Positions 5,487-37,827 of a DNA stretch of 44,155 nucleotides are shown in pieces (within the stretch, counting starts at the first letter, position 1; each line of letters begins with the position of its first letter). Position numbers and translations under genes: made by a program. A model generated the notes under the pieces. It ran no database searches, was not told where the DNA came from, and worked only from the letters and a program-made list of their open reading frames with translations. Source of the DNA: Escherichia phage Shashou; sequence record MK931440.1; one strand, given 5' to 3'.

Positions 5487-5510
5487 AAAGCCCCGAAAGG
5501 GGCTTTTTAG
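5487..5510 (+). terminator. intrinsic terminator
   Basis: aagcccc-gaaa-ggggctt followed by TTTT. Confidence 0.65.
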
Positions 5511-5571
5511 CGCCTGTGATTATTCCAGTTATTCCACTCAATTGTAAATGTTGGAATAAACTATTCGAATA

Positions 5572-5600
5572 GTTGACTTTTCACTAAAAATGTGCTAAGC
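5572..5600 (+). promoter_or_regulatory. sigma70-like promoter TTGACT-N17-(TGc)TAAGCT upstream of spanin/scaffold/capsid genes
   Basis: -35 and extended -10 with 17-nt spacer; near-identical copy at 37502..37530. Confidence 0.5.
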
Positions 5601-5800
5601 TCCACCTGAGCTTGTGAAGTATGAACAAGCGACCGCGGCGCGGGCAGGTAACGGAGCGGGACGTAAGTCCTGAGTGTAGTTACGCTGACGCGTTCGGAAG
5701 GGCCATACTCTATTGCTTGTGTAAAAAGTAACTGGTTTACTGAGATTACGCCGTTTCTATGTTTAAATGATAAGGACTAGCGCCCAGCTTTAAGGCTGGG
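5601..5800 (+). ncRNA. candidate noncoding leader/small RNA (copy 1)
   Basis: No ORF; conserved 41-nt 5' element with hairpin gcttgt-N9-acaagc shared with 37531..37571; ends near hairpin cccagc-tttaag-gctggg about 5771..5793. Confidence 0.3.
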
Positions 5801-5825
5801 CTTTACTTATCGAGAAAGGAGAAAC

Positions 5826-6212
5826 ATGAATCCTAAAGCAACTGTCGTAGCTGGAGCATGTTTCATCCTCCTGACATACGGCTACGGAATCTACCAGTAT
5901 CGCAGCGGCTGGAACGAAGGCCGGGCGAATCTCGTTTCGCAGCAACAGCAGGAAGCACAGGCTGAGTTAGCGAAGAAAACACAACGGCAGCAGCAGGACG
6001 AATCTAAGGCCGCCGCTGCTGACAACGAAGGCAAGACGAAATCAGAGGTGATTACCCGTGAAGTCGTTAAGTACATTAAAACGCCTGGCCGCAGCGTGTG
6101 CACTTTCGACGATGCTCGCGTCCTGCTCAAGTCCCACGCCGTTGCCAACGCCAATTCCATCCCCGGATACGACGATGATGCAGCCGCCGTGCAAACTGGC
6201 ACCGCCAAGTAG
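5826..6212 (+). CDS. i-spanin (Rz-like)
   Basis: N-terminal TM segment (ATVVAGACFILLTYGYGIY) followed by Q/E/K-rich coiled-coil; overlapped by lipoprotein ORF in +1 frame. Confidence 0.6.
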   Translation: MNPKATVVAGACFILLTYGYGIYQYRSGWNEGRANLVSQQQQEAQAELAKKTQRQQQDESKAAAADNEGKTKSEVITREVVKYIKTPGRSVCTFDDARVLLKSHAVANANSIPGYDDDAAAVQTGTAK

Positions 6213-8157: not shown

Positions 8158-8173
8158 GGTTAAGTTATAATCG

Positions 8174-8197
8174 AGAGGGACTTCGGTCCCTCTTTTC
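8174..8197 (+). terminator. intrinsic terminator after major capsid gene
   Basis: gagggac-ttcg-gtccctc followed by TTTT. Confidence 0.7.
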
Positions 8198-8218: not shown

Positions 8219-8560
8219 ATGGCAGACGTATTGAAACGACGCACTACGGGTGTTTCTGCGGATACAGTTGGCGCTAAGATTGACATGGAGACTATTTCTC
8301 CAGCGTCTTTCTCCCCCGCGCTCGCTGCAACCACATCCGTCACAGCGGGTGAAACTATGACACTGACCGTAACAGTAACTGGCGGTCTGAAGCCATATTC
8401 ATATCAGTGGTACAAAGATAACAACGCTATCGCCGGGGGTACCGCGGCTACCTATGCTAAAGCGTCGACCACTGCCGCCGATTCCGGCACGTATAAAGTG
8501 GTTGTTCACGATGTGTATGGTAATATTATCTCCAGCAGCACTGTAGCAACTGTGTCTTAA
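8219..8560 (+). CDS. Ig-like domain protein (putative head decoration)
   Basis: KPYSYQWYKDNNAIAGG...SGTYKVVVHDVYG Ig-like motif; paralog of C-terminus of 5022..5483. Confidence 0.55.
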   Translation: MADVLKRRTTGVSADTVGAKIDMETISPASFSPALAATTSVTAGETMTLTVTVTGGLKPYSYQWYKDNNAIAGGTAATYAKASTTAADSGTYKVVVHDVYGNIISSSTVATVS

Positions 8561-8596
8561 TACAATGGCCCTTCGGGGCCATAATAAGGAAAGGTC

Positions 8597-8776
8597 ATGG
8601 CAGATAATTACGTAATCCGCGAAAAGTACACCCACGTTGATATTGTTGATGGTCAGGTGATGCCAGTGCGCGGTGTTGTAGATGCGGATGAGCTTGTAGC
8701 AACACAACCGGATAACGAAGGAGCACACAACAACGGTGGTGGTACTAAGCGTCGTCGCCGTAAGTCTGAGGAATAA
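8597..8776 (+). CDS. small basic protein (59 aa), hypothetical
   Basis: ATG with RBS aaggaaagg; fills gap between flanking genes; C-terminal KRRRRK; below the 60-aa track cutoff. Confidence 0.45.
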   Translation: MADNYVIREKYTHVDIVDGQVMPVRGVVDADELVATQPDNEGAHNNGGGTKRRRRKSEE

Positions 8777-8779
8777 TTT

Positions 8780-9292
8780 ATGCCGCTAATCGTGGAAGAC
8801 GGGTCAATAGTCCCGAATGCTGACAGTTACGTTAGCCTGGCCGACGCCCGCGCGTTAGCGGCTAATTATGGTCTTGAGCTACCAGCTGACGATACCACCG
8901 CAGAGGTGGCCCTGCGAAATGGTGCTACGTACGTCGGCCTGTCCGAACCGCAGATGTGTGGTCGCCGTGTGTCCGCCGAGCAGTCGCTGACATACCCGCG
9001 CACCGGGGTAACGCTGAACGGCTTCCCTGTGGCTAACAATGTAATTCCTAAGCAGGTAATTCTTGCACAGGTAATCGCCGCAGTAACATATGGCGCAGGT
9101 ACAGAGGTGAGGGCTAACTCCGACGGACGTTCAGTACAGACTGAGCGCGTAGAGGGTGCAGTAACCGTCACCTACTTCAACAACGGTAGTTCTGGCGCTA
9201 CTACGTCAATCACCGCAGCAGACGACGCCTTGCGCCCGCTTCTTTGCGGCGGCCTTAACAATGGCTTCTCATTTAACGTGTACCGGGGTTAA
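8780..9292 (+). CDS. head-tail connector protein (gp6-like, putative)
   Basis: Position after capsid genes; N-terminal SLADARALAANYGLELPADD resembles gp6-like connector N-termini. Confidence 0.45.
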   Translation: MPLIVEDGSIVPNADSYVSLADARALAANYGLELPADDTTAEVALRNGATYVGLSEPQMCGRRVSAEQSLTYPRTGVTLNGFPVANNVIPKQVILAQVIAAVTYGAGTEVRANSDGRSVQTERVEGAVTVTYFNNGSSGATTSITAADDALRPLLCGGLNNGFSFNVYRG

Positions 9293-9294
9293 AA

Positions 9295-9909
9295 ATGGCG
9301 AAGACTAAAACAGAGATATTTACGCTAATCGGGTCTGAATTACCGGATAACACAACCGGGCTAATCACCCCAGCTAAGTTACGCGGGGTGCTAACCCAAA
9401 TGGCTGACTCGCCGATTTATGTCACACCCGGCGTGAAAGAGGTTGAGGTGCTACGTGCCGCATCGACCATAGCACAAGCGCCAACCGCAGTAGATACCGC
9501 ATTGCAGTTAACTTTCGGCTCTGCTCAGGGAAGCGCATCCGACCCCGTGATGATTAACACGGCAGGTTTGGTTACGTTCAACACCGCAGGTAACTACGCC
9601 GTTCGCATCAAGTTACAGGCGGGGCGCACGGGTGCTAGCGGTACATCAATCCTGTTATCGCGTATTCTTCCGAACGGCTCTCAGTACGGCTCGCCAGCTG
9701 CCACGAAACTGGTAAGCGCGGACGTGACCATCCCGATTGAATCCCGCGTCGTTATTAACCCAACCGCGGGCCAGACTTTTGCCGTTCAGATTATGCGGGA
9801 TAGCGCCGGGAGTAACTTCGGTGGCGTATACCCTCAAGCGGCTACCGTAACTGCATGGGGTACCGCACCGTCCGCGCTACTGGTTATCTCGAGACTGGAG
9901 GCTGCGTAA
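9295..9909 (+). CDS. hypothetical structural protein
   Basis: Tightly packed ORF in head-tail joining region. Confidence 0.5.
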   Translation: MAKTKTEIFTLIGSELPDNTTGLITPAKLRGVLTQMADSPIYVTPGVKEVEVLRAASTIAQAPTAVDTALQLTFGSAQGSASDPVMINTAGLVTFNTAGNYAVRIKLQAGRTGASGTSILLSRILPNGSQYGSPAATKLVSADVTIPIESRVVINPTAGQTFAVQIMRDSAGSNFGGVYPQAATVTAWGTAPSALLVISRLEAA

Positions 9910-10268
9910 TGGGTACAGCTTTCAGTAAACGTATGCAAGGCGTGGGCACACGCCTGCTAACCAAATTTGGTAGCACGGTGTCTCTGGTTCGCTCTGGCTC
10001 GAAAGTGTGGGACGAAGTTCTCGGCGAGTACGTCTGGTCTGACGATGAAGTGTTGCCGTTGAAGGCTGTTCCGGTTCCGGTTAACGCAGGACTGGTAAAC
10101 GGTACGACGATTCGGGCTGGCGACATGATTGTTAAAGCCGATTACAGCGTCGTTCCGAAGATGGAAGACAAGGTGCAATTCGGCGGTGAGCAGTGGTCGG
10201 TAGTAGCCATCGAGAAGAAGATGGTTAACAATGATGTCGTGGCCTACTTTATTCAGGTGAGAAAATGA
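9909..10268 (+). CDS. head-tail joining / head closure protein (putative)
   Basis: Start at Met19 of track ORF overlapping previous stop (TAATG); synteny. Confidence 0.45.
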   Translation: MGTAFSKRMQGVGTRLLTKFGSTVSLVRSGSKVWDEVLGEYVWSDDEVLPLKAVPVPVNAGLVNGTTIRAGDMIVKADYSVVPKMEDKVQFGGEQWSVVAIEKKMVNNDVVAYFIQVRK

Positions 10269-10660
10269 GTTTCGCGCTTGATGTCTCTAAGTTCGTTGAG
10301 AAGGCGAAGAAGAACCCTGAAACGGTTATGCGTCAGGTGTCTATCAAGCTGTTTTCCGCTATTATAAAGGTGAGTCCGGTAGACAAAGGGCGTTTTCGTA
10401 TGAACTGGATGGCGTCGGGAGGAACCCCCGCTTCCGGAACTACAGACGCTACCGACAAGTCTGGTAACATCGCAATAGGAAACGCCACTAGTTTTGTGCT
10501 GAAAGCCGCAGACTGGTACGAGTTTACGCTGACTAATAACCTGCCGTATGCGCAACGGCTGGAGTACGGTTGGTCGCAACAGGCCCCGCAAGGTATGGTC
10601 AGGACTAACGTGTCACGTTTCCAGCAACTAATTAATGAAGAAGCCAATAAGGTAAAATGA
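10265..10660 (+). CDS. tail completion protein (HK97 gp10-like, putative)
   Basis: ATGA overlap with upstream gene; KGRFRMNW motif region; synteny. Confidence 0.5.
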   Translation: MSFALDVSKFVEKAKKNPETVMRQVSIKLFSAIIKVSPVDKGRFRMNWMASGGTPASGTTDATDKSGNIAIGNATSFVLKAADWYEFTLTNNLPYAQRLEYGWSQQAPQGMVRTNVSRFQQLINEEANKVK

Positions 10661-11073
10661 TGGGCTACTTTGAAGACTTAACCAAAGCGTTCGACGTGCC
10701 GCTGGTAGCCTTCGGAAACACCAACGGCATCAAGATAGCGCTTGAGAACATCGACGCTCCGACGTCAACCGATACGCCATACCTTGCGAGTTACATGCTA
10801 CTGGCGGATACCGAGCAGGCCGACTTATTTTTCACAGAGCAACGCGCCGGTGTTTATCAGGTGGACATTAACTACGCATCGGTGAAAGGTAGCGCGCCAA
10901 TCAATAAAATGGCAGACTTACTTAACACGACATTCAAAGCAGGTAAGTCTTTTTCACGTAACGACATCTGCGCCGAAGTGCAATCGGTTAGCCTGGGGCC
11001 GCTGATTGTAGAAAATGGATGGGCTAAAAGACCATTGTCGATTAACTTTATTGCATTCACCAAGAGGCTGTGA
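10657..11073 (+). CDS. tail terminator protein (putative)
   Basis: Immediately upstream of major tail protein; ATGA coupling. Confidence 0.45.
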   Translation: MMGYFEDLTKAFDVPLVAFGNTNGIKIALENIDAPTSTDTPYLASYMLLADTEQADLFFTEQRAGVYQVDINYASVKGSAPINKMADLLNTTFKAGKSFSRNDICAEVQSVSLGPLIVENGWAKRPLSINFIAFTKRL

Positions 11074-11075
11074 AT

Positions 11076-12242
11076 ATGGCTACAACTCCTTTTAAGGGCG
11101 CGAATACCGCGCAATTCTATGTGGCGGAAACTACCCCGGGCGTGACACCGACTTCCCCGGTATGGTCGCCGTTGCGTAATACTGGCGGCGTTCCCGCGAT
11201 TACCCGCGACACTTTGACCTCCAACGAACTGGACGGCAGCCGCGAAACTACGTCAATTCGCACTGGTAACAAACAGGTTAGCGGTGAATACGCCATCGAG
11301 CTTAGCTCTAAAAGTCAGGATGACTGGCTGGCAGGTGCTTTAGGCTCTACGTGGCAATCAGGTGTATCCTTAACTGACCTGTCAATTACCGTCGCACCGG
11401 CAGGCAAGACGTTCACCCGTGCTGATGGTAGCTTTATTAAAGACGGCGTTGAAGTAGGCGACCTGATTGCGTTTACCAACTTAACGGGAGATAACGCAAA
11501 ACCGTTCATCGTCACTGCGGTAGAGGCACTGGTAGTGACCGGTGCGGGCATCCAGCACACTCTCACCACAGAGACCGCTACTACTGCTGCTAAGACCGGC
11601 GACAAACTGGAAACCGGTAGCCAGTGTAAGACGTTCTCTATTCTCACATGGTACAAAGGCCAGTGCGGCGGGACTGACGCGTACACGCTTACCAAAGGTG
11701 TAGAAGTTTCTGGTTTCACTGTTGAGCAGGCCGTTAACGCGATGGTAACGGGCAGCTTCCCGTTCATCGGGCGCAGCCAGGAGATTCTCACCGAGCTGCC
11801 GTCTGGTTCTGATTTCTCCTCTGTTACGTTTGGTGATGAGCCGTTCTCCTCAGTTGACGTTTCTGTGTTCGATGGCTCTACGCCGTTGCGTTGTGATAGC
11901 TTTACCATCACCAACGACAACAGCGCGTCCGCGCAGTTCGAACTCGGCAACACTAACGTTGCGTTTGTGGAACGTAGCCGCGCGGCCAACACCTTCTCCA
12001 TCTCCGGTAAGCTGTACGACATGGTGATGATTCAGAAGTTTATCAACGAACAGCAGGTAGAGATTAACTCTATTCTGGCGGGGGTAAACGGGGCTATGTC
12101 TTTCAGTCTGAAACGTGCAGAACTCACGGCGGTTACGCCAGAGATTGGTGGTCCTGAGTCAATCACTCAGAGCATAGAAGGACAGTCCACAGGCAATCAA
12201 TATCAATCTTCTATTGTAATACAGCGCATTAGCTACGCGTAA
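11076..12242 (+). CDS. major tail protein
   Basis: ATG at 11076 with RBS aagagg (track ORF opens at GTG 11070); T/S/G-rich 389-aa protein followed by strong bidirectional terminator. Confidence 0.7.
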   Translation: MATTPFKGANTAQFYVAETTPGVTPTSPVWSPLRNTGGVPAITRDTLTSNELDGSRETTSIRTGNKQVSGEYAIELSSKSQDDWLAGALGSTWQSGVSLTDLSITVAPAGKTFTRADGSFIKDGVEVGDLIAFTNLTGDNAKPFIVTAVEALVVTGAGIQHTLTTETATTAAKTGDKLETGSQCKTFSILTWYKGQCGGTDAYTLTKGVEVSGFTVEQAVNAMVTGSFPFIGRSQEILTELPSGSDFSSVTFGDEPFSSVDVSVFDGSTPLRCDSFTITNDNSASAQFELGNTNVAFVERSRAANTFSISGKLYDMVMIQKFINEQQVEINSILAGVNGAMSFSLKRAELTAVTPEIGGPESITQSIEGQSTGNQYQSSIVIQRISYA

Positions 12243-14215: not shown

Positions 14216-14256
14216 GGTGTAGCTCCTGTTCGAGTTAACATTGTTGGTGTAAGTGA

Positions 14257-14285
14257 ATAGTATCCTATTATGTTGGGGTGCGCAA
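14257..14285 (-). promoter_or_regulatory. promoter TTGCGC-N17-TACTAT (minus strand) with palindrome AATAG-tatc-CTATT
   Basis: Palindrome at 14256..14269; region is reverse-complement homologous to 37799..37835; drives Imm-like/phosphoesterase operon. Confidence 0.5.
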
Positions 14286-14393
14286 GTAATGTGATAGAAT
14301 AATTTTGCGCCTAGTGTCGCACACGAAAAGCGGGTGGTTCCCGTCTGGCGCATTTACCATTAACCTGTAACCTCTTAACCAAAGGATTAAAGA

Positions 14394-24750: not shown

Positions 24751-24888
24751 CTACTCTTCGGATAACTTCTCCAGTACAAACGCCAGTTGCGCATTAGCGG
24801 CGTCTCTCTGTTGCCGTAGTCGTAGAACCTCTTCTTCGAGTTCCTCGATACGTTTTTGCAATGCCGGAATTGGGGCTATGATGTTCAT
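24751..24888 (-). CDS. small coiled-coil protein (45 aa), hypothetical
   Basis: ATGA overlap with helicase stop; heptad-like IEELEEEVLRLRQQ; ends at terminator; not in ORF track. Confidence 0.4.
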   Translation of the reverse strand: MNIIAPIPALQKRIEELEEEVLRLRQQRDAANAQLAFVLEKLSEE

Positions 24889-27350
24889 TTCTTACCTCGT
24901 CTCTTCATGTAATTAAGCAATTCTTCCTGTACAGATTTCTTCTCGTCGGTGCGCGCGGCAACAACCTCATCCAGCGTGTCTTTAGCGACGATGTGATAGA
25001 GGAACACCGGGCGCTCGTGTCCAGCCTGTTTCTGACGAACAGGGCCTATGCGCTCGACAACCTGCAAATAGTGCTCGAGGTTCCATCCCTGACTTATAAA
25101 CGCCAGATGATGCCCTCCATCCTGTAAATTCAAACCATGGCCGGCTGACGCGGGATGAACACATAAGATTTCGATTTCACCACGGTTCCACGCTTCCATC
25201 TGCTTATTACCCTTAGCTCCTTTGGCAAACGCCTTAGCCTGCGGGAATCGCTTAAGTATGCGCTCCAGTTCGTGTTTAAACTGATAGGCCACCAGTAACG
25301 GCGCGCCCTGCAACTCCTCAACAATGGACTCCAGTGCGTCCAGTTTCGTGTCATGCACTTTCTCCCAGTCTTTCGTTGCTTCGCCATCTGGCCCTGATAC
25401 ATACACGGCACCGGACGCAATCTGGAGACACTTTGATGTCTTCGCTGCCGCGTTAGCGGCTTCAACTTCCCCGCTCTCGAGTTCCGCAAATAACTTCTCC
25501 TCCATATCGATGTACGCCTGACGCGCTTTCTTCGGCAGGTCTATTTCAACAGGAACGATAATCGGCGCTTCGCAACCGAACCACTCTGCAGCATCGATAG
25601 TGAGACTGATATCCTTCATCTTCTGATGAATCTCGGTATCCGCGCCCGGGCGAGCGTGATACTCACGCGCCATAGCCGATTTGCCTTTCTGTATCGAATT
25701 AAACCAGCGGTCGGTAAACGCCGTATACGAAGAACCAAGTCGCTCGCCTGCGTCTATAAACCAGTTCTGCCCCCACAAGTCTTTGAGGCCGTTTGGTGAC
25801 GGCGTACCGGTCAGGTTGATAAAACGCTTAACCTTACCAAACGCCACTTTACTAAGCGCCTTTGCTCGCTTGCTGCCACCAGAACGGCTGCGGAACGATT
25901 TAAGCTTCGTGCTCTCGTCGGCAACGATAACTGTGAAAGGCCAGTCGTCTTTGCCGTAGTAGTCAATCAGCCACTCGATAACTTCGTAGTTAGTGCACAC
26001 CACGTTAGCGTCGGACTCAAGCGCCGTGATGCGGCGCTTCTCCGAACCGGTCGCATCTACTACACGCAGGCACGGGAAACCCCAACGTGCCTGTTCCGCG
26101 GGCCACGTGCCAGACGCAACACGCAACGGGGCGAGGATTAACACGCGGTCGTCGTCATTAAGTTGCCCATTACGGAACAGGCGGTTGAGAACCCACAACG
26201 TTGAGCTTGTATTGTGCGTGACAGTGAAGTCCCCCAATAAAAACCTACTGTCACCGTCGATAGTGAAGCCGAAATAATCATCTACGCCGACCGGGGTTAT
26301 GGATTCTATACCAACGTTAAGCACGTTCTTATTAATATTACGCTTCGGTAAATTCTGGTGGCGTCCTCGCACGAAAGGTACCTCAGAAAAATCGCCAGAT
26401 ACCGACACACGGAAGTAGTCACCCCAAACATCAGTGTTTGCGCAACGCTTACGAGTTTTCTTCTTGTAAGCAGCAAAACCAAGAGAACGGCATAGATAGC
26501 AAAAATCATCAGCAAGTCGCTCGCTTACCGAAATCCAGTCAAAACCCGCTTTAGACAAATCGCAGTAACCATCACTATCCAGAAGCCCCGCCAGCAATTC
26601 TAACCGCTGTCGCCGGTCGCCGCATTTGTAACTATGCGGTATATGCTTATTGTTCAGGACACCCGCCGATTTCAGCGCGTGCGTAAACCCGTGCTTCTTA
26701 TGACCTGTGTTGCCGTAAGATATACTCCATGTAAGTCCTTCTTTTCGTATTTGCATCCCATTACGTGCTGCGTACGACTCAAGATAAGCCCTTATTTCCT
26801 TTTCGTTCTCTCCTGATGTTATGGCCCCCGACGACGAAGTACCGTCACCCAGCCATAACCCCATAAGGTACGGAGGCAATAAAGCCTCGTCCTGCTCTTT
26901 CCTTGTAAAATCGACAGGTACCCGCCAACCCTTAAGATACCCATTAGGTCCGGTTACATATTTCGGCAACTTAAGCCAGTCGCGGACGCTTATGTCGAAA
27001 ACGGTATTATCTGGCCATGAACCTTTTGCAATCCCTGTAGTAGTTCGCAGGGATAATATATGGCTTTCGTTGACCGTATACGACTCTCCTTTTCGCGGTT
27101 TAACCTCGTACATCATCTCCCGGCCTCTACCGAGAGACAGTACATTTCTAGGCGTTGAATCCGGCCCCATAAGCACGTCACCGACGATGACGTCTTCTAC
27201 TTTCTTGGTCGTACCGTCAAACATAATAACTTCCGTCCCGCGTTTCAGGCACTTGCCGCTGCCCATACTAGCCCAGATATTGCAACGTGGGTGCTGTAAC
27301 ATAAACGACGTCATTATTTTCTGGTATTCCCTGCGCCTAAATTTACTCAT
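24885..27350 (-). CDS. SF2 (SNF2-like) helicase interrupted by an intein
   Basis: Walker A split as MGSGK | intein | TSSTLW; DExx box VIVADEST; C-terminal helicase motifs incl QVVERIGPVRQ. Confidence 0.8.
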   Translation of the reverse strand: MSKFRRREYQKIMTSFMLQHPRCNIWASMGSGKCLKRGTEVIMFDGTTKKVEDVIVGDVLMGPDSTPRNVLSLGRGREMMYEVKPRKGESYTVNESHILSLRTTTGIAKGSWPDNTVFDISVRDWLKLPKYVTGPNGYLKGWRVPVDFTRKEQDEALLPPYLMGLWLGDGTSSSGAITSGENEKEIRAYLESYAARNGMQIRKEGLTWSISYGNTGHKKHGFTHALKSAGVLNNKHIPHSYKCGDRRQRLELLAGLLDSDGYCDLSKAGFDWISVSERLADDFCYLCRSLGFAAYKKKTRKRCANTDVWGDYFRVSVSGDFSEVPFVRGRHQNLPKRNINKNVLNVGIESITPVGVDDYFGFTIDGDSRFLLGDFTVTHNTSSTLWVLNRLFRNGQLNDDDRVLILAPLRVASGTWPAEQARWGFPCLRVVDATGSEKRRITALESDANVVCTNYEVIEWLIDYYGKDDWPFTVIVADESTKLKSFRSRSGGSKRAKALSKVAFGKVKRFINLTGTPSPNGLKDLWGQNWFIDAGERLGSSYTAFTDRWFNSIQKGKSAMAREYHARPGADTEIHQKMKDISLTIDAAEWFGCEAPIIVPVEIDLPKKARQAYIDMEEKLFAELESGEVEAANAAAKTSKCLQIASGAVYVSGPDGEATKDWEKVHDTKLDALESIVEELQGAPLLVAYQFKHELERILKRFPQAKAFAKGAKGNKQMEAWNRGEIEILCVHPASAGHGLNLQDGGHHLAFISQGWNLEHYLQVVERIGPVRQKQAGHERPVFLYHIVAKDTLDEVVAARTDEKKSVQEELLNYMKRRGKK
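26211..27251 (-). mobile_element. intein with LAGLIDADG homing endonuclease domain (about 347 aa)
   Basis: Begins with Cys after GSGK, ends THN followed by Thr; LAGLIDADG-type motifs LMGLWLGDG and LAGLLDSDG; excision restores GSGKT. Confidence 0.75.
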
Positions 27351-27538
27351 TTCAGCACCAGCACCAGCTCTTTACGCCCGAACGCCGTAACGTTACCTGT
27401 TACATCTTCAATAACCAGTTTACCGTTAGACTCGACGAACACCGTATCAACGGCAACAGGGCGACGGGTCTTAACGTTGAAAATCATATCGCCTGGTACG
27501 ATGTCACGTGCTGGTTTGCGGTCATATTCGTGTTTCAT
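27347..27538 (-). CDS. hypothetical protein
   Basis: 63-aa ORF with ATGA overlap to helicase start; downstream of promoter 27572..27600. Confidence 0.5.
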   Translation of the reverse strand: MKHEYDRKPARDIVPGDMIFNVKTRRPVAVDTVFVESNGKLVIEDVTGNVTAFGRKELVLVLK

Positions 27539-27568
27539 TTCTCAATTCCTTATATTGTTGGTGTAGGG

Positions 27569-27856
27569 CTAACTATAATAGTTCGCTATTAGGTCGTCAA
27601 CCTGTTTAAACGAACCAACGACAAAAACATTTGCACCACGTTTACGCATCCGCTCGTGCTCTCGTAGCTGGTGGGGGTCCGGCTTCGTGTTTTCATCTTT
27701 CTTAACCTCGACGAACCAGATGACGCTGCCGGGGAGGATTACCAGCAGGTCAGGGGCGCCCACTCTATTTTCGTACGACAATTTGCGTACGAGGCCCCCC
27801 AGGGCCTCGAATCGGTCTTTTGCGTATTTCTGAACAACTCCTTCTTTAGTCGCCAT
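27569..27856 (-). CDS. VRR-NUC domain nuclease
   Basis: PD-(D/E)xK signature GAPDLLV ... FVEVKK in a 95-aa protein. Confidence 0.65.
   Translation of the reverse strand: MATKEGVVQKYAKDRFEALGGLVRKLSYENRVGAPDLLVILPGSVIWFVEVKKDENTKPDPHQLREHERMRKRGANVFVVGSFKQVDDLIANYYS
27572..27600 (-). promoter_or_regulatory. promoter TTGACG-N17-TATAGT (minus strand) with palindrome AATAG-ttcg-CTATT
   Basis: Palindrome at 27577..27590 in spacer; upstream of helicase operon. Confidence 0.55.
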
Positions 27857-28346
27857 GGTTACAGAAATCTCCGTGTAGTGATTCTCTCGCCGCGCAGACT
27901 ACTTTGTACGCTTCCTCCTTTGTCGAAAAAGCACCGAAATATATGCGCTTCCCGTTCACGGTTATCCTTGCCCTAAATTTACCTCTTTCAGGTGATACCC
28001 CCTTTAAACATGAGGTGTTGTCACGCCTTACCCTTGCGTTTCTGGTATTCTCCCACCTGGTCGCTAACCGCAGGTTGCAAATCCGATTATCCGCACGGTC
28101 GCCGTTTATATGGTCAACCTCCTCCGGCGGCATATCACCGTACACCCACCACCAAGCCAATCGGTGTGCCGGATAGTGGACGTTTCTGAACACAACTTTC
28201 ATATACCCAAGGTCAGTGTAGTTATTTATAGCTTTCCCCGGAACAGACCGCGGACCACTTCGCTTAACCCATTTGAATACCCCAGTATCAGGGTCGTACG
28301 ACAGGAAATCTTTTATATCGTCACTTGGTGCTTTCATAATACGCAC
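27846..28346 (-). CDS. HNH homing endonuclease (free-standing)
   Basis: HNH core HYPAHRLAWWWVYG ... VDHINGDRADNRICNLRLATRWEN; C-terminal AP2-like DNA-binding region. Confidence 0.7.
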   Translation of the reverse strand: MRIMKAPSDDIKDFLSYDPDTGVFKWVKRSGPRSVPGKAINNYTDLGYMKVVFRNVHYPAHRLAWWWVYGDMPPEEVDHINGDRADNRICNLRLATRWENTRNARVRRDNTSCLKGVSPERGKFRARITVNGKRIYFGAFSTKEEAYKVVCAARESLHGDFCNHGD

Positions 28347-28419
28347 CCCTCACGTTTCGTATGCTCAATCCCGCAGCGCGGGCAGATTCGGCAGTCTTCT
28401 TCGTATAACCAGTAAATTT

Positions 28420-28551
28420 TCATTCCAGCACCCACATATAAATTGCGATGAACATGCCTAATACGGCAACCATCATGCCGTATTGGCCCTCGTGGCAGTA
28501 GACACCGGCGGCGAATCCTGCCAGTACCGCGATAATTAGTTTACTTAGCAT
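28420..28551 (-). CDS. small membrane protein (43 aa), hypothetical
   Basis: Overlaps DNA polymerase stop; two hydrophobic segments; not in ORF track. Confidence 0.35.
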   Translation of the reverse strand: MLSKLIIAVLAGFAAGVYCHEGQYGMMVAVLGMFIAIYMWVLE

Positions 28552-30712
28552 AACGCTTCATCTCCGCACCTTCCGCTACAAGAGGGAAGCCTTCTGCCCA
28601 CTCAGGCAGAGAACACATTAATTTTTCCAGTTCGCCCACCGTGTACTCAGATGTATCGGGGGTTTCGCAGATAATCTCATCGTGAACATGAAGTACAATT
28701 GGATAGCCGTTTGCTTCTACGTTCAGCAGGGCGTTAGCCAGCAAATCACGGCACAGCGCCTGAGTGCAGTTTTCCACGAGTTTACCGGAGTAGGTGTACT
28801 GGAAGCCCCACTGACGGGTTAACTGATTCTCTCCCTGGTACTTGATATGCACGTTAGTAGACACCTTCCCGTCTTCGTCTGTCTCTTTCGACACGCTCAA
28901 CCCGATGCCTGGATAGGACATAACGCGGCCAGACGGCAACGTCATGCGCAACCACCAACCGGCGACTTTGTTGCCGTTGTTGTCTGTATCTACGTTACGC
29001 GAAAACTTAACGCCCCGCGGCCCTGCGGTGAACTCTTTGCCTGGATTGCGGATAGCAGCCATAGCTGCGTCTTCAATATCTCGCCAGAATTGTACTATCG
29101 CTGGATTGGCCTCTCGGTACATGCGTTTCAGAGCGTCACATGTTCTCCATACTTTCTTATCAAGTATATATGATGGTCGGTCATCCTTTTCACCAGGACG
29201 TGGTGGTCGCTTGGCTTCCTGAATACGTGCCCACTCGTAACCGCGTGCAGTAGCAGCCCAAATATGGTCCGGGAAAGTTCCGTCTAAAGTGCGTGTCATA
29301 TCATTCAAATCAAGACCTAAGTTTTTAGCAAACGTGACGAAAGCACCGACACCACCCGCGTAGCCGAGGCCCAGAACCATTGCTTTGGCTATTTGTCTTT
29401 GGTCCTTTGTTACGTCGTCATAACTAACGTTGAACACGGTTGATGCGAGTTTCTTATACACATCAACCCCGTTTACAAATACTTCTATTAAATCGTCTTC
29501 ACCAGCAAGCCACGCAAGCCCGCGGCCCTCGACGTTAGAGTAATCAGCGACGACAAACTTGTGCCCTTCTTCTGGTATGATGCAGCTACGAACCGTCGAT
29601 GCCGTTAGCTTGGCTACGTCAAAACGGCGATGAGCACGGCCTTTAAGTAGCGCTGAAATACCTTTATCCAGTTCCTCATCATGGTAATACCCGCGAGCCA
29701 GGTTCTGTGGCTGGAAGCCTTTACCAGCAAATCGTAACGTACGCTTGGCCCCACCATACTGGATGCAACCCCGGCGGCGGTCGTCAGACGAGCGACCTAA
29801 CAGCAATGGGTTGTATTTCGTGGACGCCGTGGACGCGGCCCCGAGGCGCATTTCAATAATCGTACGCGCATCGTCCTGTAAATCATCATCCGCCAGCAGG
29901 TCATTCAGCGTCGACTTCTGTGCGTTGTGGATGCGGTGGGCGGGGGCGAGTTCACGCAGAATCGGCAGGAAGTCTTTACCGGTGAGTGAGCAGCCGTATT
30001 TGCGCTGGGCTTCTTCCTGCAACTGCGCCTTGTGCTTCTCTACGGCTTCAATCGCTGCTTCCGCCAGCGCAACATCAACCTTGAACCCACGGTCATTGAT
30101 TAACTGGTCCAGTTCCAGTACACGGTCTTCGAACTCAGAGTTACCCCACCGCGGCAGCTTATGGAATACTTCACGCATCGCGGTGATGTCGCTCACGGCG
30201 TACTTGATGAACAGCGCCCACTCGTCCGAGTGCGTTTCGGCGGTGTAGCGGCGGATTTTGTAGTTCTTCGGTGTCGGTTTAGAAAAACGCTTAATCAGCG
30301 CCTTGCCGCGTTTGTCTTTCGCGTTGTCTGCAGACACGCCCAGCACTTCACACAGCGCGTCAAGTGAACCCGGCAGCGCGTGACGAAATGCCCAAATCAT
30401 CGTATCAATGGTGTTGCTTACAGGAATATCAAAGCCCCAGCAGTGCTTCATGATGAGCCTATCGAACATTGAGCCGTTGTGCCACACCATCTTAATGCGG
30501 CTGTTTGGCTTAGCCAGACGGCGTAACGCGCGGTGCAAATCTCCCGGCATGTCGCTGCCGTCGGTGCAATCCCATGCCTGTACAGGCTCGTCGTCAAAAG
30601 CATAGGTACAGATGAGCACTTCGGTGGTTGGGTGTTCGGCGTAAGCGTAGGAGCCAACTTTCTTTAAATCGGCCTCGGAGAATGTTTCAAAGTCTAAGAA
30701 CAGGTAACTCAT
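28541..30712 (-). CDS. DNA polymerase, family A, with 3'-5' exonuclease domain
   Basis: Exo motif LFLDFETFS; motif A DYSNVEGR; motif B RQIAKAMVLGLGY; motif C VLHVHDEIICE. Confidence 0.85.
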   Translation of the reverse strand: MSYLFLDFETFSEADLKKVGSYAYAEHPTTEVLICTYAFDDEPVQAWDCTDGSDMPGDLHRALRRLAKPNSRIKMVWHNGSMFDRLIMKHCWGFDIPVSNTIDTMIWAFRHALPGSLDALCEVLGVSADNAKDKRGKALIKRFSKPTPKNYKIRRYTAETHSDEWALFIKYAVSDITAMREVFHKLPRWGNSEFEDRVLELDQLINDRGFKVDVALAEAAIEAVEKHKAQLQEEAQRKYGCSLTGKDFLPILRELAPAHRIHNAQKSTLNDLLADDDLQDDARTIIEMRLGAASTASTKYNPLLLGRSSDDRRRGCIQYGGAKRTLRFAGKGFQPQNLARGYYHDEELDKGISALLKGRAHRRFDVAKLTASTVRSCIIPEEGHKFVVADYSNVEGRGLAWLAGEDDLIEVFVNGVDVYKKLASTVFNVSYDDVTKDQRQIAKAMVLGLGYAGGVGAFVTFAKNLGLDLNDMTRTLDGTFPDHIWAATARGYEWARIQEAKRPPRPGEKDDRPSYILDKKVWRTCDALKRMYREANPAIVQFWRDIEDAAMAAIRNPGKEFTAGPRGVKFSRNVDTDNNGNKVAGWWLRMTLPSGRVMSYPGIGLSVSKETDEDGKVSTNVHIKYQGENQLTRQWGFQYTYSGKLVENCTQALCRDLLANALLNVEANGYPIVLHVHDEIICETPDTSEYTVGELEKLMCSLPEWAEGFPLVAEGAEMKRYAK

Positions 30713-30724
30713 TATTTTCGACCC

Positions 30725-30752
30725 TTAGTAAAAAGGCCCAATGAAGGGCCTT
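30725..30752 (-). terminator. intra-operon hairpin (putative attenuator) between SSB and DNA polymerase genes
   Basis: On minus strand aggccc-ttcatt-gggcct followed by TTTTT. Confidence 0.4.
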
Positions 30753-30771
30753 AGTTAAATCGATTCAGATA

Positions 30772-31398
30772 TTAGCGACGGCGACGTTCGCGGCGCGGTG
30801 CTGCATCTTCATCGTCGTCTTCCAGGTCATCGACACTTGCGGCGACTTTAGAACCACCGAACGCTTTACCTTCGCCAACATATTTAATTGCCAGAAGGTT
30901 AACACCGAGGACTTTGTATTTCTGGCTGAACCAGATTTCGACGCTTACGTTAGCAACGCAGCCGCTGTAAACCTGTTCACCTTCAATCTGTTCGCCGTCT
31001 ACGTTGAAGTCCTGTTCTACCTGAGTCTCACCTTTTTTAGAGGTTACAATCAGTGGCTGTTTCTGCGCCTTCGCTTTGAAGTAGAAGCCTTCCGGGAAAT
31101 CTTCAAACGGATTGTCGCGCTCGGCAATGTCTTTAATCGCGCATTTATCCATGTGCTTACCTTCGCCGTAGTTGGACTTCATCCATTTCTCGGCGGCGGC
31201 GGCACCTAATGCTTCTTCAACTACAGCATAAACAGCGTCGTATAGCGCGTCGATTTGAGCATGGTCGGACGGCAGGATAATCGTTGCGCTGTACTGGCCC
31301 TTAGTGATTGAGCCATCATCGTTTTCACGGTCTTTTTCGCGTTCGAATACGTTAACCCATGCAGTGTTTACTTTACGCAGATTTAATTTCAGTCCCAT
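30772..31398 (-). CDS. ssDNA-binding protein (T7 gp2.5-like, putative)
   Basis: N-terminal TAWVNVFEREKD...ILP and C-terminal acidic tail DDLEDDDED; position in replication module. Confidence 0.55.
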   Translation of the reverse strand: MGLKLNLRKVNTAWVNVFEREKDRENDDGSITKGQYSATIILPSDHAQIDALYDAVYAVVEEALGAAAAEKWMKSNYGEGKHMDKCAIKDIAERDNPFEDFPEGFYFKAKAQKQPLIVTSKKGETQVEQDFNVDGEQIEGEQVYSGCVANVSVEIWFSQKYKVLGVNLLAIKYVGEGKAFGGSKVAASVDDLEDDDEDAAPRRERRRR

Positions 31399-31456
31399 CG
31401 TGATTTCTCGCTTTTAAGTTTCGTTTACTCCGGGAAGCTGCCCGGCCAGTGATTTA

Positions 31457-31485
31457 ACTATAATAGTTTGCTATTCAGGTGTCAA
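31457..31485 (-). promoter_or_regulatory. promoter TTGACA-N17-TATAGT (minus strand) with palindrome AATAG-tttg-CTATT
   Basis: Palindrome at 31462..31475; upstream of SSB/DNA polymerase operon. Confidence 0.55.
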
Positions 31486-31489
31486 CACT

Positions 31490-31678
31490 TTATTTACTAT
31501 CTGGGTTAATTACATGCCTTACATCAATCTTACCTTTGTTAACCATTCGGATAATTTTACCCATCTCGTCGTGCATTACCATATTAAATACGCGGCGTAT
31601 CGTTTTGTTTTTACCTAGCTTTGCCCCGTTTCGGTACTGTTCTACGTAGCTTTTTTGCAATTCTTGAATCGTACTCAT
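31490..31678 (-). CDS. hypothetical protein
   Basis: Start at Met11 of track ORF with AGGAGG RBS; ATGA overlap with upstream exonuclease gene. Confidence 0.5.
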   Translation of the reverse strand: MSTIQELQKSYVEQYRNGAKLGKNKTIRRVFNMVMHDEMGKIIRMVNKGKIDVRHVINPDSK

Positions 31679-32931
31679 TCTAAATCCTCCTCTGTTACAC
31701 GGTCCCACTCAGGCCGTTTATCGTCTGCCGCGGCGACGCATGGCGCTCCCGGCTTACGGGTAATGAAGTCTTTCAGTTCTTCTTCCGGGATAACTTTAAC
31801 AGCTTCTGTCGGCGTCATGAGCACTTCTTTAGTCAGCTTGTCGCCGTAGAGTTCTGCTACTTTCTCTGCATCTTTCCACGCACGATTACCAGGACGACCC
31901 TCGACCAACTTGTACCCTAGCACTTTCTTACCGGAATGTAACGCAGCTGCCATCGCTTTCTCAACCTTGTCGATGTGCTGTCGTAACAGCGGTAACTTCT
32001 CATACTCAGCGACGAGTTGCTCAGGTGTCAGTTCAAGCGCAAAGTCGTCCTCCAGTTCTTCTGCCAGTACCGCGTTAACCGTCTTCGTACGTGCGGCGCA
32101 CTGTTCAGAGAACCGACACCACTGACAACCATCGACCGACGGCTTGAAGTCCGACGCTTTCAGGTTCTTCTTGCCACGGGAATAGGCATCTAACGTTAAC
32201 AGCGCACGTTTCTGCGCGAACTTAGCGAACAGTTCCAGACCTTCAACCGAGATGTCCCACTCTGACGCACCACCAGCATACGGCTGGAAGATGACAAGAC
32301 GAACGGTTGTTATGCTATAACGTCTCTTGAGTCGGCGATAAACACCGAGAGCGTAAAGCATAAGCTGTTTGTTTTCTTTCGCTTCGACACGATGTCGCCC
32401 GGTTTTCAGGTCGCCGATGATAAGCATGTACTCGTCGGTGTTGGCCCGTTCCTGAACGGCGACAAGGTCAGCGGTCCCGAACGTCTCAACGCCTTCATAG
32501 CCTGGATGCAATACCTCAGTAAGATTTACGCGCATTTCCAGCTTGGCGTAAGTCGCTACGTCGATAATCGCTTTGCAGTAATCGGTGTACTTGCGCACCT
32601 GCTCAATCATATCCGCCGTAATTAGTACCGCGCCTTTCATTGGGCTGATTAGTGCCTTAATCTGGCCTCTACCCTCATCCAGCACATAAGCGCCGACTTC
32701 GCGCTCTAACGGCAACGCAGTCCCGCGGATATAGGCGTTGAGATGGACCTCTGCTATGGTGTGGCACGCGGTCCCTGTAACGGCGGCTTTACCAGACGTG
32801 TTAGGAATATCTTTTTCACAGGCCAGTGACGCACTGCACGTCAGCCACTTCTTAGCACCCGACGGTGACAATATGGCGTGCACATCATTATTGCCCCCGC
32901 GTTCCTTTAAAATCATACCCTGTTCTCCCAC
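31675..32931 (-). CDS. PD-(D/E)xK exonuclease, Cas4/RecB-like with Cys cluster
   Basis: Nuclease core IIGDLKTG ... Q.MLYALG; C-terminal cysteines C-x2-C-x5-C (DGCQWCRFSEQC) typical of Fe-S cluster. Confidence 0.65.
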   Translation of the reverse strand: MGEQGMILKERGGNNDVHAILSPSGAKKWLTCSASLACEKDIPNTSGKAAVTGTACHTIAEVHLNAYIRGTALPLEREVGAYVLDEGRGQIKALISPMKGAVLITADMIEQVRKYTDYCKAIIDVATYAKLEMRVNLTEVLHPGYEGVETFGTADLVAVQERANTDEYMLIIGDLKTGRHRVEAKENKQLMLYALGVYRRLKRRYSITTVRLVIFQPYAGGASEWDISVEGLELFAKFAQKRALLTLDAYSRGKKNLKASDFKPSVDGCQWCRFSEQCAARTKTVNAVLAEELEDDFALELTPEQLVAEYEKLPLLRQHIDKVEKAMAAALHSGKKVLGYKLVEGRPGNRAWKDAEKVAELYGDKLTKEVLMTPTEAVKVIPEEELKDFITRKPGAPCVAAADDKRPEWDRVTEEDLE

Positions 32932-33185
32932 TGGTCAATTAAATGTCTCGTCTTATGGTCGCAATGTAAGGCCCATCCATACATCGACTCGAAGACATAA
33001 AAGTCAGGTTTGGCGAATGTCGTGCGCTTAATCTGCGACACGTGACGGCCTGTATCTTTGGGCCGTGGTGCTTTGCCTAAGTACGCCATTTCTTCCATCT
33101 GATGCGCACCGGATGGCGCACGCAATAGCCACAACGCCTCGGTGTTATCGCGCCTGTCTACGGCTCGGTAGAGTTGGTAAATCAT
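32913..33185 (-). CDS. hypothetical protein
   Basis: 90-aa ORF overlapping exonuclease start; GAGGG RBS. Confidence 0.5.
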   Translation of the reverse strand: MIYQLYRAVDRRDNTEALWLLRAPSGAHQMEEMAYLGKAPRPKDTGRHVSQIKRTTFAKPDFYVFESMYGWALHCDHKTRHLIDQWENRV

Positions 33186-33228
33186 AATTCCGACCCTCAG
33201 TTAAAGCGGCCCGGAGGCCGCAGGATAA

Positions 33229-33720
33229 TTATTCTTCTTCGAAATACTTGTTCTTGATTGCCGTCAGGCGCTCCAGGTATTCAACCAGGTCTTCGTCTTT
33301 AATCGCGGCAATCTTCATCTTCTTACCGGTGAACTCTTCCAGCAGTTCATCGGAGTCATCGCACGCGGCATCGCTCGGGCCTTCGTTAATCGCACCGTCG
33401 ATAGCCTGAATCTGGTCGCGCAGAGACTGGTAATCGACTTCTTCTTCCGGTTCTGGCGTCGGCTCCTCTACTTTAGCTTTACGCGGCTTGCGTTTCGGCT
33501 TCTCTTCTTCTTCCGGTTTAGTGTCGACTACGTCTTCACCTTCAACCGGGATTTCTTTTGTTTCTTCTTTAATACTTTCAGAGAACTGCTCAATTTTATG
33601 CGCGGCTACTGCGGCGGCCTCTTTGGCAGTAGTTGGCGCGAACTGTTTTGCACTGTTCGCAGCAATCAGTTCATGGGCAACTACGAAACGCTCCAGTAAT
33701 TTCAGAAATTGTTCTAACAT
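33229..33720 (-). CDS. hypothetical acidic protein
   Basis: 163-aa ORF with AGGAGAG RBS; highly acidic central region. Confidence 0.55.
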   Translation of the reverse strand: MLEQFLKLLERFVVAHELIAANSAKQFAPTTAKEAAAVAAHKIEQFSESIKEETKEIPVEGEDVVDTKPEEEEKPKRKPRKAKVEEPTPEPEEEVDYQSLRDQIQAIDGAINEGPSDAACDDSDELLEEFTGKKMKIAAIKDEDLVEYLERLTAIKNKYFEEE

Positions 33721-33735
33721 TTGTTTCTCTCCTGT

Positions 33736-33885: not shown

Positions 33886-33915
33886 TGTGTCTCTCCTCTC
33901 GTTTGGTATGGGCTA

Positions 33916-33944
33916 ACTATAATAGCGAACTATTCACTTGTCAA
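33916..33944 (-). promoter_or_regulatory. promoter TTGACA-N17-TATAGT (minus strand) with palindrome AATAG-cgaa-CTATT
   Basis: Palindrome at 33921..33934; upstream of exonuclease operon; divergent from XRE gene. Confidence 0.55.
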
Positions 33945-37501: not shown

Positions 37502-37530
37502 TTGACTTTTACTAAGAAATATGGTAAGCT
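37502..37530 (+). promoter_or_regulatory. sigma70-like promoter TTGACT-N17-(TGg)TAAGCT
   Basis: Paralog of promoter at 5572; followed by the same conserved leader. Confidence 0.5.
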
Positions 37531-37790
37531 CAGCCTGAGCTTGTGAAGTATGAACAAGCGACCGCGGCGCGCGGCAGGCGAAACGAGCACGTGTAGCGTG
37601 TGGAGTGAGGCTCGCTAGCGCGTTTGGGAGGCCCCAAGTCTATTGTAATTCCAGCCTAAGTAGCTAAGTTACTGATTTGCCGTAGGTTAGAACCGCCAGC
37701 TCACTCACTCACTCTTGGTGCCTTCGGCACCACGTTCGTTTCGTTTCGCTCGCTACCCCCTTAAACGAAAGAATCACAACGGCAACGTAA
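37531..37790 (+). ncRNA. candidate noncoding leader/small RNA (copy 2)
   Basis: No ORF of 60 aa or more; same 5' element; contains UUCG-loop hairpin ggtgcc-ttcg-gcacc and short tandem repeats. Confidence 0.3.
37699..37754 (+). repeat. short tandem repeats (ctcactcactcactc; cgtttcgtttcg) flanking a tetraloop hairpin
   Basis: Direct repeats visible in the noncoding region between divergent operons. Confidence 0.5.
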
Positions 37791-37798: not shown

Positions 37799-37827
37799 TT
37801 GCACACCCCAACATAATAGGATACTAT
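37799..37827 (+). promoter_or_regulatory. promoter TTGCAC-N17-TACTAT with palindrome AATAG-gata-CTATT
   Basis: Palindrome (37815..37828) overlaps spacer and -10; drives 37862 gene block. Confidence 0.5.

Follow-up and report, generated by a model that had tools for sequence, protein, structure and literature searches.

Escherichia phage Shashou (record MK931440.1; the whole stretch of 44,155 nucleotides (nt) analysed here is called the window) carries two copies of a module in which a promoter is followed by a structured RNA. Judged by comparative sequence analysis, this RNA is a new structured RNA family of the Guernseyvirinae, backed by covariation and duplicated together with its promoter in the Shashou genome. 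Our best guess is that promoter and ~109-nt element provide a non-coding, cis-encoded leader RNA, which would form the first ~109 nt of the transcripts from two promoters. An initial annotation of the region had described a duplicated promoter and a short structured element behind it and had compared the arrangement with the nut/put-type RNA signals that make RNA polymerase resistant to terminators.

Relatives were gathered from IMG/VR by an exact 21-mer (42 loci) and by a helix-end pattern (58 loci). Type A is copy 1 and types B, E and F are copy 2; types C and D stand in the copy 2 (early) context at most loci, type C being found in the copy 1 context as well (L008). A far more divergent type is present in Salmonella phage Jersey at the same site as copy 1, between the Ig-like head gene and the i-spanin gene (L045 7276-7500). 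In the window, a covariance model built from 24 Kagunavirus sequences matches twice and no more, at 136 and 83.7 bits; it also retrieves the Jersey-type copies that blastn missed (35-42 bits, E ~1e-5 to 1e-6). The covariation alignment, fitted to this model, holds 70 matches from 39 distinct relatives. Over the 39 distinct sequences, standard pairs fill 95.4% of the pair cells, against 82.3% in shuffles and at most 41% with slid partners, and both-sided (compensatory) changes are seen at 16 of 29 pairs. The covariation score is 0.342, compared with 0.113 for shuffled alignments (none of 500 reaches 0.342) and at most 0.076 for slid ones.

Since that alignment was itself fitted to the model, model-independent alignments were checked too. 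In a plain MAFFT alignment of the Kagunavirus sequences 94% of the cells are paired and five pairs show double changes, and RNAalifold, run on MAFFT alignments, arrives at the lower helix and also at the apical hairpin independently of the model, one helix pair being C-G, U-A or A-U according to lineage. The same long hairpin comes out when copy 1, type F and Jersey are each folded as single sequences. With values of -2.0 and -1.1, the folding z-scores of entire leaders do not stand out, and it is the comparative evidence rather than these scores that carries the case for the fold. Covariance across related phages, proposed as a check in the initial annotation, thus turned out in favour of the element: a strand-specific fold covaries and is conserved in ~450 genomes.

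All types follow a common plan: a 5'-terminal hairpin (P1), a linker of 1-2 nt, a long irregular hairpin (P2-P4) and a single-stranded tail. The element starts 1-2 nt past the predicted transcription start in both copies and in both genera. P1 differs by type: in Kagunavirus its stem is GCUUGU/ACAAGC and its loop GAAGUAUGA, in type F the stem is GCUUG/CAAGC and the loop GAGAUAUC, and Jersey has the stem UACGC/GCGUA. In the long hairpin an asymmetric internal loop, located above the middle helix and reading GGAGC / UGAGUGUA in type A, parts a stem of ~17 bp from one of ~6 bp. The lower helix of this hairpin has the consensus CCG-c-GGNGC... / ...GCNUU-CGG, i.e. a bulged C and two consecutive G.U pairs, which in copy 1 are C5636 and 5637/5638 with 5694/5693. 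The tandem G.U is kept in nearly all sequences and would become C.A on the opposite strand, so the fold is read on the plus strand, in the transcript. The purine-rich tail carries the motif UUCGGAAGGG...UAUUG, generalised across types as AAGGG(C/U)C-N6-8-UAUUG(C/U).

Copy 2 has the same P1 and lower helix as copy 1, and its upper helices are changed yet compensated. Between Kagunavirus and Jerseyvirus only the P1/P2 junction, the bulged C, the tandem G.U and the tail motifs GGAAGGG and UAUUG are kept, the rest being rewritten. Conservation of this kind, at the level of single nucleotides, would be expected more of a site that a conserved macromolecule recognises than of a generic hairpin with a stabilising role.

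These limits revise those first proposed. The 6-bp stem with a 9-nt loop seen initially corresponds to P1 (5610-5615 with 5625-5630, loop 5616-5624), and the proposed 41-nt core is indeed near-identical in the two copies, with a difference at its 5' edge only (ccacctg vs cagcctg); the conserved unit, however, measures ~109 nt. The repeat finder reports a pair of 70 nt with 87% identity (5573-5642 / 37502-37571). Weaker homology over some 150 nt, also claimed at first, is borne out by pairwise alignment, in which a fainter similarity goes on past the repeat and fades ~150 nt downstream, at ~5750 and ~37690. Extending the element to 5825 was not justified, as that 3' limit takes in a variable spacer and a separate hairpin.

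Several additional motifs were considered and rejected. A by-eye search for a pseudoknot of the tail (GGAAGGG, UCUAUUG) with P1, P4 or the internal loops gave complementarity in single variants only; CAUACU, for instance, is complementary to the copy 1 P1 loop AGUAUG, a match not preserved in other variants. Neither CsrA-type GGA repeats nor a k-turn at the GGAGC / UGAGUGUA loop is conserved in the B-type or Jersey-type variants. A mini open reading frame (ORF) after the Shine-Dalgarno-like GGAAGGG (UUG CUU GUG UAA / UUG UAA) varies in length and loses its UUG in L041. The 9-nt complementarity GCGAAACGA / UCGUUUCGC with the tract past the hairpin is restricted to B/E-type copy 2. In this same type (37654-37756), the sequence GCUCGCUA, 3' arm of the middle helix, occurs again in the post-hairpin tract CGUUCGUUUCGUUUCGCUCGCUA, which is therefore complementary to GCGAAACGAGC within the element; an alternative pairing is possible there, for the B/E variants only.

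The duplicated TTGACT-N17-TAAGCT promoter of the initial annotation is present in both copies and, with a TG two bases 5' of each -10, is of the extended -10 sigma-70 type. In the copy 1 spacer this TG lies at 5593-5594, and transcription is predicted to start at ~5608. The pattern TTGAC-N15-17-TGnTAnnnT has two sites in the 44-kb window, both of them module promoters, where 0.21 are expected and none of 100 shuffles reaches two. Relatives keep the -35, the TGn and TA(A/C)GCT, and the spacer and the n change. From -35 to +35, copies 1 and 2 are nearly the same at the DNA level.

Other promoter-like sequences were noticed along the way. The -10 hexamer recurs a few bases downstream (5596-5613), as TAAGCT-CCACC-TGAGCT in Kagunavirus and as TACGCT-ACC-TACGCT in Jerseyvirus (L045 7294-7308), which could be a sigma-70-dependent promoter-proximal pause element or merely the 5' arm of P1. 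A conserved leftward promoter-like site, TTTACA-N18-(TG)AATAAT, occupies 5519-5548 on the minus strand (L045 7221-7250) and faces the bidirectional terminator at 5487-5506; a very short antisense RNA might start from it, or the stretch might serve the element's promoter as an AT-rich UP-like region. TTGAC-N17-19-TAnnnT has four other sites in the window: one at 42511 and three on the minus strand before replication genes. The latter three are near-consensus, TTGAC(A/G)-N17-TATAGT (27572-27600, 31457-31485 and 33916-33944), and have the palindrome AACTATAATAGTT over the -10 in common; they may be under one operator.

In blastn searches, 180 phage records have the Kagunavirus-type copy 1 region, with identity >=95% in 178, and 269 records have the Jersey-type region, in one place each. 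Capsid homologues of >=80% identity occur in ~461 records and the copy 1 element in ~449 of these, which makes it near-universal in Guernseyvirinae at the position upstream of the capsid gene. Copy 2 is much rarer (~42 Kagunavirus records); the other ~138 Kagunavirus and the 269 Jerseyvirus-type records have a single copy. The distant capsid relatives PMBT28 and JWX lack both the intergenic gap and the element.

Neither element model finds a second copy in the early leaders of K1H and Jersey, where other non-coding sequence is present. These element-less leaders (K1H L182 34879-35290; Jersey L045 38860-39240) consist of 300-400 non-coding nt with GC hairpins, and that of K1H reuses the GCCCCGC..GCGGGGC stem that relatives have behind copy 1. 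The early leader seems to be a place where non-coding modules can be exchanged. One relative (L057) has a mosaic early leader in which promoter and element, at the 5' end, are joined to a K1H-type 3' half, and promoter plus element therefore behaves as a portable cassette.

A host origin was considered and discarded: none of 5,426 complete E. coli genomes contains the element, and the lone "plasmid" match is a Kagunavirus genome. This is CP088689.1 (44,086 bp), a record that was submitted as a non-mobilizable plasmid of an E. coli blood isolate and has both copies; a carrier state or contamination might explain it. A pattern scan of 185,579 species genomes gave 26 matches, of which two (L197, L206) pass the model, both on tiny contigs resembling phage contamination, and the short pattern TTCGGAAGGG-N5-12-TATTG in IMG/VR yielded mostly chance matches, rejected by the covariance model. 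The papers searched on Guernseyvirinae, Kagunavirus and Jerseyvirus antitermination, transcriptomes and non-coding RNA do not describe the element. Rfam 15 has no match in the window at gathering thresholds, and only noise on either leader up to an E-value of 10.

The window is near Escherichia phage Sciku (MK931439; Kagunavirus, Guernseyvirinae), with 100% identity for copy 1 and 99.7% for copy 2; its rightmost 8 kb match Sciku at 99.9% identity across 87% of their length, with ~1 kb extra. Features are collected in Table 1. The cumulative GC skew has its minimum at ~37-38 kb, in the divergent early control region with copy 2, and its maximum at ~24 kb, a profile confounded by gene orientation.

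Table 1. Features of the window bearing on the promoter-RNA module (positions are those of the window)
Feature	Position	Strand	Remarks
Structured RNA, copy 1	5608..5716	+	109 nt; covariance-model score 136 bits
P1, 5'-terminal hairpin, copy 1	5610-5630	+	stem 5610-5615 / 5625-5630
Long hairpin (P2-P4), copy 1	5633-5697	+	lower helix, middle helix, internal loop, apical hairpin 5659-5670
Single-stranded conserved tail, copy 1	5698-5716	+	AAGGGCC..UCUAUUGC
Structured RNA, copy 2	37537..37646	+	110 nt; covariance-model score 83.7 bits
Promoter, copy 1	5573..5601	+	-35 TTGACT 5573-5578; 17-nt spacer; -10 TAAGCT 5596-5601
Promoter, copy 2	37502..37530	+	TTGACT-N17-(TGg)-TAAGCT; divergent from HTH_17 gene
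Good terminator before copy 1 promoter; bidirectional terminator	5490-5508; 5487-5506
AU-rich spacer, partly conserved	5717..5781	+	small hairpin AGTAA..TTACT 5727-5741; motif GATTACGCCGT
GC-rich leader hairpin	5782..5801	+	followed by TTTACTTAT; 24 nt before i-spanin start (5826)
Strong intrinsic terminator after capsid gene	8173..8194	+	UUCG loop, TTTTCATTT; within the unit from 5573
HTH_17 / excisionase-type regulator gene	37215-37394	-	divergent from copy 2
(CTCA)n C-rich repeat, then hairpin TGGTGCC-TTC-GGCACCA	37700-37714, 37716-37732	+	poor U-tract (CGTTCGTTTC)
Second promoter-like site	37799..37827	+	TTGCAC-N17-TACTAT; between copy 2 leader and first early gene (37853)
Packaging, head and tail genes	13-24720	+
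Replication genes	24885-37466	-
Small early genes and lysis genes	37853 to window end	+

As initially described, copy 1 stands ahead of the spanin, scaffold and capsid genes, with a hairpin (5782-5801) and a strong terminator (8173-8194) downstream of it. The leader hairpin is terminator-like in Kagunavirus, and its stem covaries (CCCAGC, CCCCGC, CCCTGC, CCCGGC). The terminator after the capsid gene is kept in Jersey (L045 9859-9876). No promoter-like site was found after the 8173 terminator before the decoration, connector and tail-tube genes (8219-12242), and the unit that begins at 5573 and runs from spanin, scaffold and capsid to tail-tube ends at a bidirectional terminator at 12249. Terminator-like sites at 5782 and 8173 without an internal promoter-like site fit a need for read-through.

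We tentatively propose that the element is a cis-acting, promoter-proximal RNA that modifies the elongation complex, put-like in its logic; this is the most economical reading in our view, held at well under even confidence and followed, in order, by a small RNA or sponge and by an RNase III or 5'-stability signal. On emerging from RNA polymerase the folded RNA would bind the elongation complex, either directly, as HK022 put does, or via a conserved host or phage factor, and would stay with it, so as to reduce pausing and termination, including Rho action on the long untranslated leader. Neither the leader hairpin nor the capsid-distal terminator at 8173 would then stop polymerases that set out from the module promoters. 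The contact surface may be formed by the GGAAGGG tail together with the P1/P2 junction, the bulged C and the tandem G.U, and the freely compensated upper helices would be scaffold.

The argument for recognition by a conserved macromolecule comes from the position at the 5' end, the distance to the ribosome-binding site (RBS) and the conservation confined to the base, the bulge, the G.U pairs and the tail. The same three firm features speak for a generic, promoter-linked role rather than a gene-specific one. In particular, the element lies 110-210 nt from the first RBS and the genes downstream of the two copies are unrelated, which argues against gene-specific translational control.

The phage HK022 put element is, to our knowledge, the only phage antiterminator that acts as RNA alone; its activity is a protein-independent read-through of terminators that is abolished by mutations in the zinc-binding domain of the RNA polymerase beta' subunit. 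Like put, the Shashou element is a cis-encoded RNA of two stem-loops at the predicted start of a sigma-70 transcript. The likeness goes no further than layout: HK022 putL begins at ~+2 after a sigma-70 promoter and has two stem-loops (PMC9378689). In both systems the second stem-loop is irregular as well as long and includes non-canonical pairs, the genome has two diverged copies whose stems differ by compensatory changes, the copies lie ahead of terminator-containing operons, and a dedicated protein has not been identified. Unlike put, which measures ~70 nt, the element is ~109 nt long and has a conserved single-stranded tail; its host phage is a virulent siphovirus whereas HK022 is lambdoid; one copy heads a late structural operon, and most relatives carry only that copy.

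A put covariance model that scores its own putL/putR at 92-99 bits has no match in the window, Jersey or K1H at E-values up to 10, the element models have none in HK022, and local alignment of putL to either copy scores 24 against a shuffle null of 19.5 +/- 3.2. With lambda nut, the element has in common the promoter-proximal position behind two promoters and a phage-specific small hairpin (P1, cf. boxB) beside a part conserved across phages (cf. boxA); the conserved part is a helix and a tail here, not a linear boxA. Allowing at most one mismatch, boxA (CGCTCTTA / TGCTCTTTA) is not found in 5573-5826 or 37502-37853, its window-wide count being below chance, and ops (GGCGGTAGnnTG) is not found in either leader.

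Judging from these searches, the element is not a member of the put or nut family. Of the nut/put-type proposal, then, family membership fails (the put model, boxA, ops and N/Q searches were all empty) and the position stands, given that the element heads a terminator-bearing operon without an intervening promoter. EAR, conAn and Tn916 elements are likewise structured RNAs in or before long operons and promote read-through of several terminators; they belong to Gram-positive chromosomes or conjugative elements, their structures are unrelated, and the Rfam search, which includes EAR, was empty.

A number of observations weigh against an action on the elongation complex. Reciprocal covariance models and local alignment show no sequence or structure homology to put. 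The leader hairpin has no U-tract in the 269 Jerseyvirus-type records, and the hairpin after copy 2 has only a poor one, with the C-rich (CTCA)n tract before it. Element-less relatives, e.g. JWX, likewise have a leaky terminator behind the capsid gene; the minus-strand unit passes a terminator-like site at 30727-30756 without such an element; and the tail operon has an extended -10 promoter of its own with a different conserved hairpin leader. Most Kagunaviruses and all Jerseyviruses run their early region without copy 2. Promoter-like sites after the copy 2 leader and after a terminator at 38617 mean, moreover, that read-through is not obviously needed in the early region. No conserved alternative pairing of the element with the downstream hairpins was found either, and so the element is not an attenuator. 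Because put and nut traits are absent, the hairpin U-tract is a Kagunavirus feature and a promoter-like restart follows copy 2, antitermination is put forward here as a proposal.

Three of the downstream features just mentioned deserve description. The (CTCA)n tract at 37700-37714 differs in unit number among relatives (more units in L005) and, being C-rich, G-poor and unstructured, could be a Rho loading site. The second promoter-like motif recurs on the plus strand at 38732-38760, after the 38617 terminator, and on the minus strand at 14252-14285; the repeated motif, TTGC(A/G)C-ACCCCAAC-ATAATAGGA-TACTAT with palindromic core AATAGGATACTATT, lies just upstream of an RBS all three times and probably marks a distinct (early?) promoter class. 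Judging by its copy at 14285, the minus-strand "superinfection immunity" gene would seem to start farther downstream than annotated. Before the tail assembly chaperone gene (14293-14350), an extended -10 TGaTAGAAT is followed by a GC-rich nested hairpin, GCGCC..GCGGGTGGTTCCCG..GGCGC, that is also present in Jersey (L045 16990-17055), conserved and unrelated to the element.

A more specific form of the elongation-complex proposal, which we regard as doubtful, is that the element founds a second, independent family of RNA-only antiterminators, unrelated to HK022 put, that would bind E. coli or Salmonella RNA polymerase. Polymerase would then become resistant to intrinsic and Rho-dependent terminators alike, and the element could be a late-gene switch or an insulator across ~450 virulent phage genomes and a "terminator-proof promoter" cassette.

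Not far behind an action on the elongation complex stands the possibility, already raised in the initial annotation as far as a small RNA is concerned, that a folded RNA of ~110-200 nt acts in trans as a stable small RNA or protein sponge. It might come from a non-coding RNA gene or be a 5' fragment cut by RNase E in the AU-rich spacer, and it might pair through the conserved tail or the P1 loop or titrate a host protein. The succession of promoter, structured RNA and GC hairpin, with TTTACTTAT next in Kagunavirus copy 1, is what such a gene would present. The copy 2 leader closes with a hairpin and is followed by a new promoter-like site before the first gene, and therefore looks like a separate unit. 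The early leader being a mosaic slot where non-coding modules are swapped (K1H and Jersey differ) points the same way; strong promoters and a second early copy fit a benefit of dosage or timing, and the conserved unpaired tail could serve as seed.

An Hfq-type terminator with a long U tail is absent, however: of the Hfq-type traits the promoter is present, and the tail TTTACTTAT is found after Kagunavirus copy 1, is missing in Jersey and is poor after copy 2. Jerseyvirus-type leaders are without a U-tract and have the i-spanin RBS at most 25 nt farther on, too close for a promoter, so that copy 1 there must be the 5' untranslated region (UTR) of the spanin-capsid mRNA. The universal copy lying in the late structural operon would also be odd for a host-takeover RNA.

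It is less likely again that the element is a 5'-UTR stability or processing signal, in which P1 would protect the 5' end and the long hairpin would be an RNase III-type site, together setting the half-life or translatability of the mRNA. RNase III sites are known from T7 early mRNA and the lambda N leader, and two stems separated by an asymmetric internal loop are their classic phage shape. The long hairpin, with its ~17-bp and ~6-bp stems, has that shape, in an untranslated phage leader as well. P1 resembles 5'-terminal stabilising hairpins in its position at the extreme 5' end, at most 1-2 nt from the predicted 5' end in every variant despite its genus-specific sequence, and a generic cis module would serve any gene set. 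What separates the element from RNase III sites and stabilising hairpins is its nucleotide-for-nucleotide conservation across genera at base and tail: neither function requires the bulged C, tandem G.U, GGAAGGG and UAUUG to be kept between genera while other parts of the helices are freely rewritten.

Comparably unlikely, and ranked just behind, is a protein-dependent antitermination or regulatory site of one of two sorts, which we weigh jointly: a nut-like one, with a phage protein on the genus-specific P1 and host factors on the conserved part, or a Q/AlpA-like one, with a DNA-binding protein, e.g. the adjacent HTH_17 product, that loads onto RNA polymerase at the conserved promoter and initially transcribed DNA. 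P1 is invariant in both Kagunavirus copies and different in Jerseyvirus, as boxB is among lambdoid phages. The order of promoter, conserved initially transcribed region, short leader and terminator-like hairpin before lysis and structural genes is that of Q (qut) and AlpA systems and recalls lambda PR' with its 6S RNA and tR'. The near-identity of the copies from -35 to +35 in DNA, the HTH_17 / excisionase-type regulator gene divergent from copy 2, and the many early proteins that fall in families without assigned function are in keeping with such a site. So is the -10-like repeat of both genera, reminiscent of the sigma-dependent pause elements that occur at Q and AlpA sites (PMC9371919, PMC6606751).

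Against it, boxA is absent from the leaders and no N-, Q- or AlpA-family match was obtained: no N/Q-family protein was detected among the 20 ORFs from 37853 to the window end (the scan leaving aside holin/endolysin at 41160-42223 and the minus-strand genes), and no AlpA match among the early ORFs and the HTH_17 gene. Matches of the 20 early ORFs to PHROGs are confined to families of unknown function and an HslV-like peptidase. The HTH_17 gene also adjoins early leaders that have no element (K1H, Jersey), and L009 carries two P1 loops, GAAGUAUGA and GAGAUAUC, in one genome. Q and AlpA act via DNA sites without structured RNA, and a DNA-only mechanism leaves the RNA covariation of P2-P4 unexplained, the fold of the element being conserved; its promoter spacer, moreover, differs between genera, and a U-tract terminator follows only Kagunavirus copy 1.

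A riboswitch or attenuator that senses a metabolite or ion and controls the downstream hairpin is very improbable: a conserved structured domain does precede a terminator-like hairpin at Kagunavirus copy 1, yet no Rfam aptamer appears up to an E-value of 10, the hairpins after copy 1, copy 2 and the Jersey element are unrelated, lie at variable distances and fold independently with no exclusive pairing conserved, and Jersey and copy 2 have no real terminator. A DNA-level replication signal, either a promoter-primed R-loop origin or a single-strand initiation site, can be all but dismissed, since the GC-rich segment with G>C skew directly 3' of a strong promoter and the closeness of the cumulative GC-skew minimum to copy 2 are offset by a skew that tracks gene orientation, by a universal copy in the late structural cluster and by intramolecular helices with conserved G.U pairs that point to a folded transcript.

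Hardly credible, too, are small protein-coding genes as annotated in GenBank, where coding sequences (CDSs) lie over the element in CPT_Sciku_007 (5621-5731, plus strand, 36 codons) and CPT_Sciku_053 (37531-37638, minus strand, 35 codons), Jersey_08 (L045 7265-7456) is a 63-codon ORF spanning promoter and element, and beneath the match many further records have similar "hypothetical protein" annotations. It is possible to draw reading frames of 35-63 codons, and they were annotated by the depositors, but the annotated strands of the two copies are opposite; the plus-strand ATG is inside the P1 loop, reads GTG in L221 and does not occur in F-type and Jersey-type variants; indels of 1-2 nt change the frame, giving products of 19-36 aa with only MNKRP in common; and substitutions are compensatory by pair, not synonymous. 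CPT_Sciku_007, CPT_Sciku_053 and Jersey_08 are thus very probably spurious CDSs.

HK022 put was discovered three decades ago, and the virulent phages that bear the element described here are widely isolated for therapy against E. coli K1 or uropathogenic E. coli and Salmonella. Should the RNA modify RNA polymerase, phages would have just two cases of antitermination by RNA alone, and synthetic biology would gain a compact cassette of promoter plus RNA, along with a new means of probing the RNA-exit region of the polymerase. Recognising the family would also correct spurious "hypothetical protein" annotations in hundreds of GenBank phage records. With another role, as sponge RNA or processing signal, it would still be a well-supported new structured RNA family, and one that shows where the main late transcription unit of Guernseyvirinae begins.

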